From: a virus
Direction: 5' to 3' (one strand)
IMG/VR virus record: IMGVR_UViG_3300020457_000004
Location: 73,117-137,116 of that record
Length of the DNA stretch: 64,000 bases
In this document: positions 30,434 through 61,835 of the stretch, one piece after another
How the letters are laid out: every line of letters starts with the position of its first letter
Numbering within the stretch: position 1 is the stretch's first letter
The notes under the pieces: generated by a model
Database searches by the model: none
The model's input: the letters and a program-made list of their open reading frames with translations, nothing else
Told to the model about the DNA's origin: nothing
Program-made: the position numbers and the translations under genes

Positions 30434-30544
30434 TTAGAATGGTAACTTGTCAAATACTGTGTCAAGAAAATCCAACCAACCTTTTCGGTCTTTAATCCAT
30501 GCTCCAATTACTATCCCAATAACGAGTCCTGTAATTAACCACAT
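30434..30544 (-). CDS. 36-aa single-pass membrane peptide
   Basis: MWLITGLVIGIVIGAWIKDRKGWLDFLDTVFDKLPF with a strong AGGAGGAG SD; below the ORF track cutoff. Confidence 0.7.
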   Translation of the reverse strand: MWLITGLVIGIVIGAWIKDRKGWLDFLDTVFDKLPF

Positions 30545-30577
30545 ATCTTTCTCCTCCTTCTCTTTGAGAATTTGTTA

Positions 30578-30838
30578 GGACAGTATTCTGGTGCTAGGAA
30601 CTGTCCGAAACCCCGAGCGATTCTACGCCGCTAAAGCGTAGTCCTCATAAGCAGTATTATTTTCTGCATTTATGGTTTTGTTGCACTTACGGCAGCTTCC
30701 TCTCCGAACTCTCCACGCACCTATTAAGTTCCAGTCGATCCTGTTCGCCCCCTTAGTCGGGTCTATAAGAATTGATTGGTGGAGGCGGGGGGAATCGCAC
30801 CCCCGTCCTGTAAACCTTTCGACTTGTTTCATCGAGTT
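30578..30838 (-). ncRNA. ssrA: Circularly permuted two-piece tmRNA
   Basis: The acceptor piece ends GGACGGGGGTGCGATTCCCCCCGCCTCCACCA (CCA at 30777). After a 24-nt spacer the coding piece starts GGGGGCGAACAGGATCGAC (30752). The acceptor stem has a G3-U wobble pair. The tag frame 30667-30623 reads AENNTAYEDYALAA*, preceded by TAAAT. Outer ends are approximate. Confidence 0.93.
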
Positions 30839-30842
30839 AAGT

Positions 30843-30876
30843 TATTTATAATACTACAAGATAGGCCAAAAGTCAA
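30843..30876 (-). promoter_or_regulatory. Overlapping sigma70-like (TTGACT-17-TATTAT) and late (TATAAATA) promoters of the tmRNA
   Basis: TTGACTTTTGGCCTATCTTGTAGTATTATAAATA. Confidence 0.75.
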
Positions 30877-39907: not shown

Positions 39908-41027
39908 TCAATATCCTATAAAATTCTGAAAATATTTCACTATAACATTCATTTCTCAATCCATCTAATCTTTCTGTAACAGGTAAAAACCCAAGGTCTA
40001 ATTTATCAAAATTGGGTTCTTGATTCATAAACGATATGATATCGTCCATGTTTGGAATATTTATAAGTTTATCTTCAACCTGTTTTTTACATACATCTGG
40101 CATATTTCTAACACAATACTGTCTAGGGAAATGTAAAAGATTCAGATATATGTTTTCTCTTCCAAACATGTCTATAAATTCATCTAGATAATATATGTTA
40201 TAAAGACTTACAGTATGACATACTTGGACATACATCCAATCAAGTGATTTGAAATGACTATAGTTATCCCACACTTCATCCCATTTTGCTGGGTGTCTAA
40301 TATATTCAAATTTCTTGAATATTCCATCAATACTAAACATTACTTCACAAGACTTGAACTCTTTCCATAAGTCAAATATTTTTTGTGGTGGACGAATAGT
40401 ACCATTCGTGTTATAATGCAAGGATATGTGTTCCGCGTGTCCTGCCTCAACCGTTTTACGCAATAACTCAAAGTGTTCTTCTATCATAAATGGTTCACCA
40501 CCTGTGAAGTCCATTTGTTCTACCGTATGCATAATCTCAAAAAGTTCATCCCATACACTTGGGTTCTTAACAATCCACAATGGGTCTTTTTTGTTTAGGA
40601 TTCTACCGTATAATTTTTTCTCATCCGTTTGCCACTTTGAACTGTTTATGCTACCACAAGTTCTACATTTTAAATTACACAATGTACCAAATTTTAGGTC
40701 AAGATATTTGGGGGTATCAGTAGCAATAAAACTTCCCCTTTCTTTTATGTCTTCGAGTTCTTTGGCAAATCTTTGGTTATCTTGTAATCTCTTTGATTGA
40801 TATCCTGCTGCTTCTCCTTCCCAACACATGGCACATCCAGCTGGTTGTTTGCCTTCAAGAAACTCTCTTCGTAAATTTTTATATGGTTCTCCATTCCAGA
40901 CATCAAGAAAGTTTTCTTGTTTTAGATTTCCCATAGGATTACCTTTATATAAACAACATGGGTTAGCAGTTCCATCTGTAGTGAACTCTGTATGAACCCA
41001 AGGTAATACACAAATCTTATCAGTCAT
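39846..41027 (-). CDS. Radical SAM protein with N-terminal twitch/SPASM-like domain (family A)
   Basis: CVLPW..G..NPCC...CAMCW, then CNLKCRTC, TGGEP and YNTNG. Confidence 0.9.
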   Translation of the reverse strand: MTDKICVLPWVHTEFTTDGTANPCCLYKGNPMGNLKQENFLDVWNGEPYKNLRREFLEGKQPAGCAMCWEGEAAGYQSKRLQDNQRFAKELEDIKERGSFIATDTPKYLDLKFGTLCNLKCRTCGSINSSKWQTDEKKLYGRILNKKDPLWIVKNPSVWDELFEIMHTVEQMDFTGGEPFMIEEHFELLRKTVEAGHAEHISLHYNTNGTIRPPQKIFDLWKEFKSCEVMFSIDGIFKKFEYIRHPAKWDEVWDNYSHFKSLDWMYVQVCHTVSLYNIYYLDEFIDMFGRENIYLNLLHFPRQYCVRNMPDVCKKQVEDKLINIPNMDDIISFMNQEPNFDKLDLGFLPVTERLDGLRNECYSEIFSEFYRILIDGGIGREPWNPKQYFGQIS

Positions 41028-42144
41028 GCAAATACCTTAAAAATCTTTCTTTATAATCATCATCAAATCTACTATAATCGTAATAATAATGTTTACCTTC
41101 AACTGTAATTCTGTCTATATCATCATACTTACCAGAAATGTTATTTTCTACAAACTCCAAATCAGCATCAACAACCCTACCCAGTTTAGCAAATCCATAT
41201 CTACCTTTTTTATCTTCTGGGTCTAGTCCCTGTTCAACTAACCACTCATCAAATCCTTTTACCCAACTTTCATGTTGGTCTGTAGCAAACTTAATTAACA
41301 TGTCTCCAGATAAAAATTTAATTGGTTCTACATGTTCATCTTCCAATTCTTCATCATCTTCCGCGTATGCTTCTATATGTGTCTTTCCAATCTGAGGATA
41401 CCCAAGTAAGACATCACCAAATTTAGCATATTTTGTAAACAGGTCATTGAAACAATCTGGTAGTTCTGGTAACTTTTTTGGAGCTCTTTGCCATGACACA
41501 TTAATATGCATGTTAAAGTCTGCCTGTTCATCATTCTGCAATGTAGTATGAAGTTCGTGAACTTCTAAATTTAAACGACATATACTTGCTTGGACATCTG
41601 GGGAAGCAACATATAAGTGTGCGCTAGTTTTTTCTGCTGGGCCAGACAACATAGGAAAATAGTTATGGACAACATTCATTTTCTTATTATCATTACCATC
41701 CTTAAAGTCTTCCATACTTAACCTTTCTGTTATATCTGGATTATTTTTAATAGGTTGGTCAAGAACATTTCTTTGGTCTGCCTTAACATATTCTGGCCAC
41801 CTTGTCCATTGTTCAGCAACAAAATCAAACTTGGATATATGGTCTAATGTATTATTAACCTTTTCTATCATGTCTTCTGTAGTAAGAGTACTTTCTCCCA
41901 TAAAGACATGTTCTTTTCTTAGGAAAGCTTTGGTTTCTAGTTCGTGTTTAAATCTCTGATACCAAATGTCTACCGCGTGATTATCATCTAACGATACATT
42001 CAGTTCCATAGGTTCAATACTACTATCTCTACTATTGCGTAGTCTTAGGGTTATTATAGCGTCCTTACATTCATTAACACCAGCATAATCCTCCGCAAAG
42101 AAATAATCATCATCTCTAGGTCTATCTTTTTCTTTAAACGGCAT
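41020..42144 (-). CDS. Hypothetical protein within the radical SAM operon
   Basis: 374-aa ORF coupled on both sides; LN.EVHE and YPQIGKT segments; no family recognised. Confidence 0.7.
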   Translation of the reverse strand: MPFKEKDRPRDDDYFFAEDYAGVNECKDAIITLRLRNSRDSSIEPMELNVSLDDNHAVDIWYQRFKHELETKAFLRKEHVFMGESTLTTEDMIEKVNNTLDHISKFDFVAEQWTRWPEYVKADQRNVLDQPIKNNPDITERLSMEDFKDGNDNKKMNVVHNYFPMLSGPAEKTSAHLYVASPDVQASICRLNLEVHELHTTLQNDEQADFNMHINVSWQRAPKKLPELPDCFNDLFTKYAKFGDVLLGYPQIGKTHIEAYAEDDEELEDEHVEPIKFLSGDMLIKFATDQHESWVKGFDEWLVEQGLDPEDKKGRYGFAKLGRVVDADLEFVENNISGKYDDIDRITVEGKHYYYDYSRFDDDYKERFLRYLHD

Positions 42145-52444: not shown

Positions 52445-53012
52445 TTCTTATCTCCAAATTAAAAGGAACAACATTCTTTTTAGGAATGAATTCCTCGTCC
52501 ACTAAATTAATAACATAGATGTACTGGTAATATTCTGCTACAGGGTCAACCTTAAACATATACTTTTTGTTCCATATTATATCTTTCCACCAAGTATCAA
52601 AGTCTTCTTTCCAATCTTGATAATTTGGTGACTTCCTTTTGTTTTGCCATATCGCGTTATAACCAGTTCTATTAACATCAATAGAAGCCCAGAGATGTTT
52701 GTATCCATTCTCCTTCGCCCATTGTATCTGATATCTCGTGAGAGGCATCCCATAAGTAGTTCTTCTAAATTCTTTTAATGTGTGCAATCTACACATTCTT
52801 AATGCGGTGGGGTTGTCCGTATAATGGTCAACCTCGGCCGCTTGACAGGAGGCAAGTTTTCCATCTTCCCATAAAAGATGAAATACTCCATTAAGATTAT
52901 CGGGGTCTAACTTCTCTTCAATGAGAGAGTCATTGTCTTCCGCGAGAGCTTGTTCTCTGAATTTTTCCCAATGTTTTTTATGTTTCTTTTCGTATGGCGT
53001 AATTTTCCACAT
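52434..53012 (-). CDS. GNAT-like acyltransferase
   Basis: RL.TLKEFR...G...I.WAKENGY pattern of GNAT motifs A and B. Confidence 0.5.
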   Translation of the reverse strand: MWKITPYEKKHKKHWEKFREQALAEDNDSLIEEKLDPDNLNGVFHLLWEDGKLASCQAAEVDHYTDNPTALRMCRLHTLKEFRRTTYGMPLTRYQIQWAKENGYKHLWASIDVNRTGYNAIWQNKRKSPNYQDWKEDFDTWWKDIIWNKKYMFKVDPVAEYYQYIYVINLVDEEFIPKKNVVPFNLEIRNEH

Positions 53013-60295: not shown

Positions 60296-60334
60296 ATTCC
60301 ATTTGTGTCTGGTTAACGGTTCGTTAAACTCTTA

Positions 60335-60643
60335 TTAAGCTACTAGACCTCTAGAAGCTGCAAGAGCTTTGTATCCAGCGGCAATAATTGCCCTAGAAGG
60401 TGTTCCCAAACGGTATCGTGAGACACCTTTTCGTACATTGCCATTCCTGTCAGTATACGCTGGGGTTTTGTTTAAATAAATGGCGAAACCATTCTGACGA
60501 AGGTGTGTCACCAATGCTCTCGCATTAGTTACGCCAAACCTATTTTTCATTTCATTAGCAGTCAGACCTTGGTCTGTTTTCTGCAAGGCTGAAATAACCT
60601 TTTTCGCTTGTGAAGTTTTTTTCATACTATACTCCGTTTTCAA
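60335..60643 (-). CDS. Small winged-helix-like DNA-binding protein
   Basis: LT..E...RFGV.N.RA.V..LR..GFAIYLN...YRLGTPSRAIIAAGY; likely start is MKKT at 60625. Confidence 0.65.
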   Translation of the reverse strand: MKTEYSMKKTSQAKKVISALQKTDQGLTANEMKNRFGVTNARALVTHLRQNGFAIYLNKTPAYTDRNGNVRKGVSRYRLGTPSRAIIAAGYKALAASRGLVA

Positions 60644-60740
60644 TAATAAAGTTAACTTAAAGTGTTAACCATCCACAAATTCATTTAGTCGCATCGTAAC
60701 AAAAGTTCGGTGCGTATGAAAGGCAAATCTTCTCGTCCTT

Positions 60741-60902
60741 TCATTCTGCTGTTGGTGTAGTACTATCGTGCAGCTTACCAGAAGTTGATGTTTTAATGGA
60801 AACATCTAAGTCTTGGTCTTTTGGTAATTCAGCGATAAGATTTATTCTTCCGCTACATGCTGTTATCATAATACACACAACTAATATACTCAAGTATTTC
60901 AT
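60741..60902 (-). CDS. 53-aa putative lipoprotein
   Basis: MKYLSILVVCIMITACSGRINL..., lipobox ITA-C, AAGGA SD; missed by the ORF track. Confidence 0.65.
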   Translation of the reverse strand: MKYLSILVVCIMITACSGRINLIAELPKDQDLDVSIKTSTSGKLHDSTTPTAE

Positions 60903-60924
60903 TGTTTTTGTCCTTCTATAAAAG

Positions 60925-61166
60925 TGGGCAGTTTAGGATGAAGAGAGATGCCCAGCTCTCTTTGTCCATCTGTGTTATGCGAGGCCATCACTGCCCTCTG
61001 TAGTCTGATGGACTGAGCCTTTTTCGGTCTGTGTGTTACCATGCGCCACTGCTCAGGGCTCCTTATGGTTTAACGACATACTATCTTGATGCATCATTAC
61101 ATGGCTATCAATGTTCAGTCGAGGCAGTTTATAGTGTGACAGGATGGAGTCTTTGCCTAGGACTAC
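60925..61166 (-). ncRNA. Putative structured ncRNA made of repeated H-type pseudoknot modules
   Basis: Three hairpins with CTRRGCA loops, each complementary to a downstream TGCCT, GCTCAG or TGCCCA segment; no credible CDS here. Confidence 0.55.
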
Positions 61167-61177
61167 AACTGTTAAAT

Positions 61178-61247
61178 TGGAGCGGCGTCTAGGAGTTTCA
61201 CCTAACCTTGTCCGTTGGAAACGGATTGTACGAATACCGTCCACCGC
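61178..61247 (-). tRNA. Atypical tRNA-Gly(TCC)-like RNA, 70 nt
   Basis: GCGGTG...CGCCGC-T-CCA acceptor, anticodon loop TT-TCC-AA, T-arm TTAGG-TGAAACT-CCTAG, D-arm reduced to GTA-TTCG-TAC. Confidence 0.7.
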
Positions 61248-61252
61248 ATGTT

Positions 61253-61301
61253 TATTTATACAAGTTTCAACCATTATACTGATCTTTTTTGCAAATGTCA
61301 A
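61253..61301 (-). promoter_or_regulatory. Tandem sigma70 consensus (TTGACA-17-TATAAT, 61273-61301) and late (TATAAATA, 61253-61260) promoters
   Basis: Exact motifs directly upstream of the tRNA-like RNA. Confidence 0.85.
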
Positions 61302-61314
61302 GCGTTTTTTTCAA

Positions 61315-61644
61315 TTATTTTCCAATGTCTTTTATATTGGATTTACCGATTACTTGATACGCACCTTTATTGTATGCTGGTGCAACCGTGTAACCAGATG
61401 AAATTTCTTGCTTCTGTCGTATCCACTTATCATCCTTAGTGCCACTTGTTGGTGCCATAGAATTAAGCGATGGATACTTTCGCCTGTGTTCATTCATCTC
61501 ATCAAGACGATAATGAGGAACAGACTTCATAGGTTCAGACTTAAAGACAGTCTTACGCTTGGTTGGATTGTTCTTCTTATATGCCTTACGCTTACGCCCA
61601 GACATATCGTATCGAAGGCTACCGCCCATGTGCATCATACCCAT
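61315..61644 (-). CDS. Hypothetical basic protein
   Basis: C-terminal YTVAPAYNKGAYQVI...IKDIGK, a motif I recall from marine T4-like phages. Confidence 0.7.
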   Translation of the reverse strand: MGMMHMGGSLRYDMSGRKRKAYKKNNPTKRKTVFKSEPMKSVPHYRLDEMNEHRRKYPSLNSMAPTSGTKDDKWIRQKQEISSGYTVAPAYNKGAYQVIGKSNIKDIGK

Positions 61645-61835
61645 GATGGATTTACCTTTACAAACTTTCTACGCGCCTTACTAAACAACTTGGAAGGTCT
61701 CTTGTAGAAGATTTCTTTCTTGGTTCCTGTGATGATATAACCAACATTCTGATTCTTCTCATCAAAGATGTAGGTGTGGTTTTTTGTATTGTCTTCCCAC
61801 ACCGTAATCTCTTTCAAGTATGTCAACCCACTCAA
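61635..61835 (-). CDS. Small hypothetical protein
   Basis: LKEIT.W...NHTY...FSKARRKF; coupled to its neighbours. Confidence 0.65.
   Translation of the reverse strand: MSGLTYLKEITVWEDNTKNHTYIFDEKNQNVGYIITGTKKEIFYKRPSKLFSKARRKFVKVNPSWV

Follow-up and report, generated by a model that had tools for sequence, protein, structure and literature searches.

A phage-borne family of stripped-down glycine tRNAs and its possible part in DNA modification

What use might a marine phage have for a glycine tRNA that seems relieved of the features by which tRNAs enter translation? The question is raised by a tRNA-Gly(UCC)-like RNA of 70 nucleotides (nt), encoded on the minus strand of a 64,000-nt stretch of DNA (positions 73,117 to 137,116 of the uncultured virus record IMGVR_UViG_3300020457_000004; hereafter the window), which forms the last 64 kb of a 137-kb record with a CheckV completeness of 83%. 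The phage is T4-like, with a gp45-type clamp, a permuted alpha-type tmRNA and weak DNA similarity to Pelagibacter phage HTVC008M; the sole match in a phage collection was to 68 nt within a protein gene of HTVC008M. An original prediction had described the RNA as a degenerate glycine tRNA and had offered for it the roles of a non-ribosomal glycine donor, an anticodon-nuclease decoy or a processing signal. Taken together, the present data show that the RNA is real and conserved and that it belongs to a family of stripped-down glycine tRNAs carried by phages. They also allow a model, to which we give about an even chance, in which the RNA would be a private glycine carrier, charged by glycyl-tRNA synthetase (GlyRS), kept from translation, and supplying GNAT-fold enzymes that modify DNA.

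Anatomy and conservation of the tRNA-like RNA

The RNA and the signals ahead of it are arranged as follows, in window coordinates.

61178..61247, minus strand: 70-nt tRNA-Gly(UCC)-like RNA, a cloverleaf by its sequence, its minimum-free-energy fold, covariance model R1 (see below) and covariation
61247-61241 and 61188-61182, minus strand: acceptor strands of the RNA
61240-61230, minus strand: D hairpin
61226-61210, minus strand: anticodon arm, with TCC at 61219-61217
61205-61189, minus strand: T arm, with its loop at 61200-61194
61181, minus strand: U73, followed by the encoded CCA at 61180-61178
61253..61260, minus strand: T4-late-promoter-like box TATAAATA, an exact match that ends 5 nt upstream of G1
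61273..61301, minus strand: sigma-70-type promoter-like site, TTGACA-17-TATAAT, matching 12 of 12 consensus positions

The acceptor stem is built of G1-C72, C2-G71, G3-C70, G4-C69, U5.G68 and G6-C67, with a mismatched G7.A66 to close it. The anticodon stem of 5 base pairs (bp), the outer of which is an A.C mismatch, carries a 7-nt loop with U33, the anticodon TCC and A37, and a variable region of 4 nt leads to a 5-bp T stem whose first pair is U.G and whose loop reads TGAAACT where TTCRANN is normal. GG is missing from the D region, which consists of a 3-bp hairpin beginning at nucleotide 8, i.e., directly after nucleotide 7. The canonical arm layout is kept (7-bp acceptor, 5-bp anticodon and 5-bp T stems, with one closing mismatch each in the acceptor and anticodon stems), and the elbow set (G18G19, U54-U55-C56, U8 and a 4-bp D stem) is not preserved as a set, with U54, R57, A58 and G53-C61 retained. 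U55 and C56 normally contact G18 and G19; since both sides of this D-loop/T-loop contact are gone, the elbow contacts were lost jointly and not at random. The bacterial GlyRS identity set has been described as U73, G1-C72, C2-G71, G3-C70, C35 and C36 (PMC9976931), and all six of these elements are present in the window copy. The original prediction read most of this correctly: G1-C72, C2-G71, G3-C70, U73, the encoded CCA and the TCC anticodon are all in the sequence, as are the TGAAACT loop, the D region without GG, the mismatches in the acceptor and anticodon stems and the start of the RNA 5 nt after a late-promoter-like box (TATAAATA at 61260-61253).

The RNA is passed over by standard annotation. 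ARAGORN gives no call at 61178-61247 in the window and none at this place in the whole 137-kb genome, where a relaxed run made 55 calls, none of them here; nor does it find a canonical tRNA gene anywhere in the genome. Rfam searches at E <= 10 gave no tRNA match at the locus and nothing above chance in 60300-61700. A tmRNA tRNA-like domain or a known Rfam phage RNA family was also considered and rejected, as no model matches, that of the manA motif included, and the sole tmRNA lies at 30532-30872. The minimum-free-energy fold is the cloverleaf, with the D hairpin as ACG/CGT. However, the folding energy is near chance (z = -0.85; 36 of 200 shuffles fold as well or better), and that of the whole 421-nt region gives no advantage over shuffled sequence either (z = +0.88), so that the RNA is judged genuine because it is conserved and covarying and not because of its folding energy.

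Loci of relatives were retrieved through two flanking protein genes. Four of them (L083-L086) share 88-96% identity across 431 nt, whereas a fifth, L087, is diverged. In L086 and L087 the anticodon stem is altered on both strands and has gained a Watson-Crick closing pair. The T stem shows four different pair combinations, and U5.G68 has become U5-A68. The sigma-70-type site is invariant in the four close relatives and retained in L087. Boxes of the type TATAAATA number 14 in the window against 7.8 expected by chance, and the one upstream of the RNA, a putative late promoter by analogy with T4, is conserved in L083-L087.

A covariance model, R1, was built from five of these sequences; its E-values are rough. 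It scores the window RNA at 110 bits and 20 relatives at 25-108 bits, ordinary phage tRNAs scoring 30-38 bits. Collections were scanned with a pattern that comprised only the 3' end of the acceptor and the odd T arm. In the viral collection the pattern occurs in 20 stretches, five of them already known; of the other 15, 11 are confirmed by R1 (36-59 bits). R1 was applied to 80 of 119 metagenome stretches (contig L410 was scored additionally later) and confirms 18 of these loci, 13 being near-identical to the window type; among prokaryote genomes, sampled at one genome per species, it was applied to 80 of 104 stretches and confirms four, one of which is the bacterial copy of provirus G015. The tRNA-like RNA is thus found mainly on phage records. 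A stricter pattern, extended to the anticodon loop and the 5' strand, was discarded, as it retrieved only the five known relatives, and matches to the relaxed pattern were mostly chance or protein-coding, for example a repeated gut-metagenome gene with an 8-nt spacer.

Among 21 distinct sequences (43-70% G+C), 97.4% of pair cells are paired and 13 of the 19 pairs change on both sides, for a covariation score of 0.675 as against 0.154 in shuffles (none of 500 reaches 0.675) and 0.03-0.10 with slid partners. Compensatory changes are seen in all four helices, and the odd T loop is kept throughout. The 3-bp D hairpin of the original prediction stands, although in another register: GTA-TTCG-TAC (GTA-UUCG-UAC as predicted) can be drawn in the window sequence but is broken in relatives such as L086, whereas ACG/CGT, favored by covariation and by the minimum-free-energy fold, covaries with ACT/AGT, CCA/TGG and GTC/GAC. 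None of the 21 sequences departs from the first four acceptor pairs or from U73-CCA (the 3' side being imposed by the search pattern), and G18, G19, U55 and C56 are absent from every one. The anticodon loop retains CC in 20 of 21, with T, G or A at the wobble position and with CC offset by one position in a few relatives; several have C37 and C38, or a loop cut to 4-5 nt. That CC is retained while wobble base and loop size vary is what would be expected of a loop read by a synthetase rather than by the ribosome. In one high-G+C relative, L137, the D arm is longer, and ARAGORN calls this copy tRNA-Gly.

The setting of the RNA in relatives is informative as well. It is followed by a terminator hairpin in L139, L140 and L144, directly by a canonical tRNA-Gly(GCC) in L142, L138 and L151, and it lies between tRNA-Arg and tRNA-Leu in L141. 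These terminators of its own and these tRNA-row settings indicate that the RNA is an independent gene and that the structured leader found downstream of it in the window is a clade-specific companion rather than part of the same device; the canonical tRNA-Gly directly after it in relatives indicates that the odd RNA is no stand-in for a normal tRNA-Gly. In the close relative L086, a canonical tRNA-Arg(TCT) (L086:2243-2319) lies immediately upstream of the promoter of the tRNA-like RNA, a position consistent with the locus being a remnant of a tRNA region.

The proposed carrier role and its rivals

In the proposed model the RNA would be made from early-type and late-type promoters of its own and cut back to about 70 nt with a terminal CCA, and host GlyRS would charge it through U73, G1-C72, C2-G71, G3-C70, C35 and C36. 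Bacterial EF-Tu and ribosomes need the tRNA elbow; without G18G19, U55 and C56, and with a 3-bp D hairpin, the RNA would form no normal elbow and would be a poor substrate for either. The glycylated RNA could then deliver its glycine to a GNAT-fold aminoacyl transferase, for which the first candidate here is a Mom-family enzyme, and a private carrier of this kind may spare the competition for Gly-tRNA between DNA modification and translation. The non-ribosomal glycine donor of the original prediction is accordingly the role that the identity set, the lost elbow and the GNAT company favor most, although the GNAT or tailoring operon of the window, which it had named as a possible client, no longer appears to be the likely one.

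It is possible, if unlikely, that the RNA is an ordinary though odd-looking decoding tRNA-Gly(UCC) that supplements the translation of GGA and GGG in an A+T-rich phage. The anticodon loop of the window copy is canonical (7 nt, with U33 and A37), other phages carry the RNA inside rows of tRNA genes, the genome of the present phage encodes no further tRNA, and L137, with its longer D arm, is called tRNA-Gly. However, the elbow bases are missing in 21 of 21 sequences and the 3-bp D hairpin abuts the acceptor stem, the C37/C38 or 4-5-nt anticodon loops of relatives are unsuited to decoding, and in L142 and L138, where a canonical tRNA-Gly comes directly after, the odd RNA is not the decoder. Phage tRNAs that counter tRNA-cleaving defences are known, and an RNA that keeps the acceptor end and CC of tRNAGly and drops the translation features could likewise act as a decoy or sponge, shielding the host tRNAGly pool from an anticodon nuclease or a Gly-tRNAGly-acetylating GNAT toxin; we consider this slightly less probable again. 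GNAT toxins that act on charged tRNA are indeed mentioned in the Mom report discussed below (PMC13219725). Against a decoy, no tRNAGly-targeting defence was identified near any copy, and the recurrent neighbor is a phage DNA-modifying GNAT rather than a counter-defence gene; the anticodon loops, moreover, vary widely in size and sequence among relatives, down to 4-5 nt, and the anticodon-nuclease decoy that was originally suggested fits them poorly.

A role in cis, in which a tRNA-shaped 5' module steers RNase P or 3' processing, thereby freeing or stabilizing the downstream leader and mRNA, is quite improbable in our judgement. In its own clade the RNA does stand ahead of a conserved structured RNA, about 275 nt long, and of an operon, and one metatranscriptome contig bridges the CCA end while another begins 12 nt behind CCA. 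Yet the other clades are without the leader, their RNA being followed by a terminator or sitting between ordinary tRNAs, which tells against the processing signal of the original prediction as the main role, and such a signal would need neither the full glycine identity set nor the anticodon CC. Least credible of all, and very nearly dismissed, is a decaying, functionless tRNA-Gly pseudogene. The RNA is missed by tRNA finders and its folding energy is no better than shuffled, but the compensatory changes extend to four helices across 43-70% G+C, the odd T loop is kept, and marine RNA libraries of several studies contain the region. Random decay from a canonical tRNA, the outcome that the original prediction had set against itself, is not what the relatives show, as the odd features covary or are conserved.

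Candidate partner enzymes

If the RNA is a glycine carrier, the enzymes that it might supply include the following, two of which are encoded outside the window.

Genome G000:C1:25357-25992, outside the window (L256:1360-2181), minus strand: Mom-family gene (PF25680), 198 bits
Genome G000:C1:about 40223-41335, outside the window (L417:964-2076), minus strand: DUF4338/DruA-type protein of 370 amino acids (aa), adjoining a PD-(D/E)XK nuclease
52668..52973 of the window, genome 125784-126089, minus strand: classical GNAT (Acetyltransf_1) inside a long late operon; PF00583, 21.4 bits against a cut-off of 20.7

The partner is likely the distant Mom-family gene and possibly the DUF4338-type GNAT. Mom of phage Mu is described in a 2026 report as transferring glycine from Gly-tRNAGly to the N6 of adenine in double-stranded DNA; it accepts all three E. 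coli tRNAGly isoacceptors and rejects Gly-tRNAAla, the authors suggest that the acceptor end is what it recognizes, and term searches of the main text of that report found no mention of a phage-encoded tRNA (PMC13219725). The Mom protein of the present genome aligns with Mu Mom (8BV8) at E 4.5e-22 and, in the phmmer alignment (chain numbering plus 9), keeps H58, Y59, S124, D149 and Y159. Its gene lies among replication genes, its neighbors being a redoxin, the gp45-type clamp and a cytidylyltransferase-cupin fusion. Mom is present in the close relatives G003 and G004; it was not found in three other close relatives, which are fragments of 26-50%, and it occurs in none of 25 related records without the tRNA-like RNA, three of which are 86-100% complete. 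On the metagenome contig L410, a Mom open reading frame (ORF; 79 bits) runs into the tRNA-like RNA. Further, among 401 genomes sampled without bias from the class of G047, five carry Mom, and one of these five genes (L505:1389-1962) has a tRNA-Gly(UCC)-like RNA about 90 nt behind it (L505:2053-2135) that ARAGORN misses. In five Mom-bearing fragments the tRNA-like RNA was not found, but at 5-17% completeness they are uninformative, as the genes can lie far apart. The L505 Mom frame, from a bacterial assembly, contains in-frame TGA codons, four in one piece and two in another, and this contig may read TGA as a sense codon.

A second lineage combines a Dam-like protein with a GNAT-phage-like domain. 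Three high-G+C records (G014, G015 and G016) encode a Dam-like protein, fused to such a domain in G015 and G016. In G014 (L137) the Dam-like ORF, which has no PF22559 (GNAT-phage-like) match, begins 13 nt after the RNA, whereas the fusion is 6.5 kb from the RNA in G016 and 15 kb in G015; on L160, from a Thiohalocapsa genome, a Dam-like/GNAT-phage-like fusion comes directly after it. In the provirus fusion (L260; G015:C1:25686-27812), the Dam-like domain is interrupted by some 270 additional aa, which give a faint match to intein splicing.

The third lineage is DUF4338, which is described as a GNAT domain (PMC10853773). On L361 a DUF4338/DruA-family ORF (83 bits) runs into the tRNA-like RNA, and DUF4338-type proteins are present in the present genome, G004, G007 and G010. 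Profile comparison found no similarity between the DUF4338-type protein and Mom. Its structure model is poor (mean pLDDT 63), so that the Foldseek result, with no match at E <= 0.001 but with top matches that are all GNAT folds (8BV8 seventh), is a hint only. As for other transferases, the genome has no match to FemAB/Acetyltransf_6, and a search for the T4 glucosyltransferase family PF09198 matched nothing anywhere and is therefore uninformative.

Several observations weigh against a private carrier for these enzymes. The Mom gene is about 109 kb from the RNA on the record, and about 54 kb away in G004, and no TATAAATA lies near it. Since each of the three host tRNAGly isoacceptors serves Mu Mom, the reaction can do without a private tRNA, and of the residues that matter in Mu, where R111K is reported as drastically reduced and R151A as inactive (PMC13219725), the pairwise alignment places K at R111 and I at R151 in the present protein. 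PF25680 is found in none of 11 R1-positive viral records outside the clade of the present phage, and that clade amounts to one evolutionary event, perhaps two. DUF4338-type proteins, for their part, occur widely in contigs of marine T4-like phages (in at least 593 stretches), and two of the 25 control records have one, so that their co-occurrence with the RNA, in two records, is weak evidence that could be chance. Fifteen of 16 DUF4338-bearing fragments (8-46% complete) have no R1 match, which is uninformative as the genes lie far apart, and the remaining one has an R1 match of 24 bits. G007, at 91% completeness, has neither Mom nor the Dam-GNAT fusion but only the DUF4338-type protein, and the complete G013 has none of the three enzyme families, although its RNA has also lost the CC loop; the link between RNA and GNAT enzyme is not universal. 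Finally, the search pattern fixes the T loop, the inner pairs of the T stem and the 3' strand of the acceptor, so that their invariance is partly built in, and the alignment used for covariation was fitted to the model.

A broader proposal, in which chargeable carrier tRNAs are a general phage invention and the Mom, Dam-like/GNAT and DUF4338 (DruA-type) lineages each have a private, finder-invisible carrier RNA, is put forward tentatively, and we think it rather unlikely. If it held for the three GNAT lineages, tRNA-dependent DNA aminoacylation would be far wider than the single case of Mu, and its reach would extend to abundant marine T4-like phages and possibly to the DruA component of the Druantia defence. 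A minimal, translation-blind glycine carrier borne by a phage would illustrate how a virus separates a modification pathway from protein synthesis, would offer a natural minimal substrate for GlyRS and Mom, and would expose a tRNA-derived gene class that standard annotation misses in ocean-abundant phages. In a search that most subscription journals lay outside, no publication was found that deals with an elbow-less tRNAGly encoded by a phage or with a tRNA private to Mom.

The downstream operon and comparison with known systems

Behind the RNA, the following features are found in the window.

60903..61177, minus strand: structured leader RNA of about 275 nt, with several pairings of hairpin loops to downstream sequence (pseudoknot-like)
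60741..60902, minus strand: small ORF of 53 aa after the leader, from the ORF list; no Pfam family
60335..60643, minus strand: winged-helix protein gene (HTH_39, phrog_4973); Pfam PF14090, 34 bits
60272..60295, minus strand: terminator-like hairpin and T run at the operon end

The leader is 88-96% identical in L083-L086, has no Rfam family match, and is confined to its own clade, being absent behind the tRNA-like RNA in others. Compensatory changes in it, read by eye in L087 and L083, include AGGCA/TGCCT against AGACA/TGTCT and CTGAGC/GCTCAG against CTGAAC/GTTCAG. L087 lacks the 53-aa ORF, its leader being followed immediately by the winged-helix gene. That gene probably starts at the Met at residue 7 and not at the TTG of the ORF lister, because L087 has a stop codon ahead of this Met. 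Homologues of the winged-helix protein often adjoin tRNA rows in other phages.

Part of the stretch is contained in RNA libraries (19 runs from 12 studies). Among four runs that were aligned, a metatranscriptome contig of 723 nt covers 60527-61247 with 0 differences, bridging the CCA end and terminating at G1, and further contigs span the leader and operon. Contigs end at 61247 (X1), 61257 (X5) and 61264 (X6), with 61265-61347 uncovered, and X3 starts at 61166, 12 nt past CCA. Such contigs prove neither transcription nor transcript ends, and their ends hint at best weakly that a transcript begins behind the promoter.

The tmRNA of the phage lies elsewhere in the window (30532-30872, minus strand) and is a circularly permuted, two-piece alpha-type molecule with the tag AENNTAYEDYALAA. 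A second permuted tmRNA occurs at phage locus L125:1335-1735, near a phrog_4973 homologue.

Among known RNAs, the canonical phage tRNA-Gly(GCC) of L142 and L138 shares with the tRNA-like RNA the same acceptor-stem start, U73, the encoded CCA and a tRNA-region neighborhood; however, its D stem has 4 bp, its D loop contains GG, its T loop has TTC, and ARAGORN detects it, none of which is true of the tRNA-like RNA. Animal mitochondrial tRNAs with reduced D and T loops likewise form a cloverleaf without canonical elbow contacts. These nevertheless decode, with factors and ribosomes that have co-evolved with them, whereas the setting of the phage RNA is a bacterial host with standard EF-Tu.

Nearer in purpose may be the staphylococcal non-proteogenic (NP) tRNAGly species NP1-NP3, which are described as carrying TGC or TGT in the T loop in place of TTC (PMC7826273). 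Like them, the phage RNA would be a chargeable glycine tRNA that is diverted from translation and avoids competition for EF-Tu, and it would serve a tRNA-dependent transferase instead of the ribosome. Both have G55 in the T loop, although the phage triplet is TGA and position 56 differs from that of TGC or TGT. In contrast, the staphylococcal species, as far as that report describes them, are cellular, full-size, equipped with a normal D arm, restricted to staphylococci and used by Fem transferases in cell-wall synthesis, whereas the phage RNA is borne by marine phages, has 70 nt and a 3-bp D hairpin, belongs to a genome without the Fem family and likely has a client that modifies DNA. The likeness is convergent, the phage RNA lying outside the staphylococcal lineage.

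With the Mu Mom system (PF25680, 8BV8) the phage shares a strong Mom-family protein, and the Mu reaction as reported needs glycine on the acceptor end of tRNAGly (PMC13219725). However, Mu uses host tRNAs and encodes none, while the present phage would bring its own stripped-down carrier, and the two Mom proteins differ at two residues essential in Mu, R111 and R151. The closest analogue of the phage RNA would thus be, in logic, the staphylococcal NP tRNAGly and, in chemistry, the Mom system of phage Mu.

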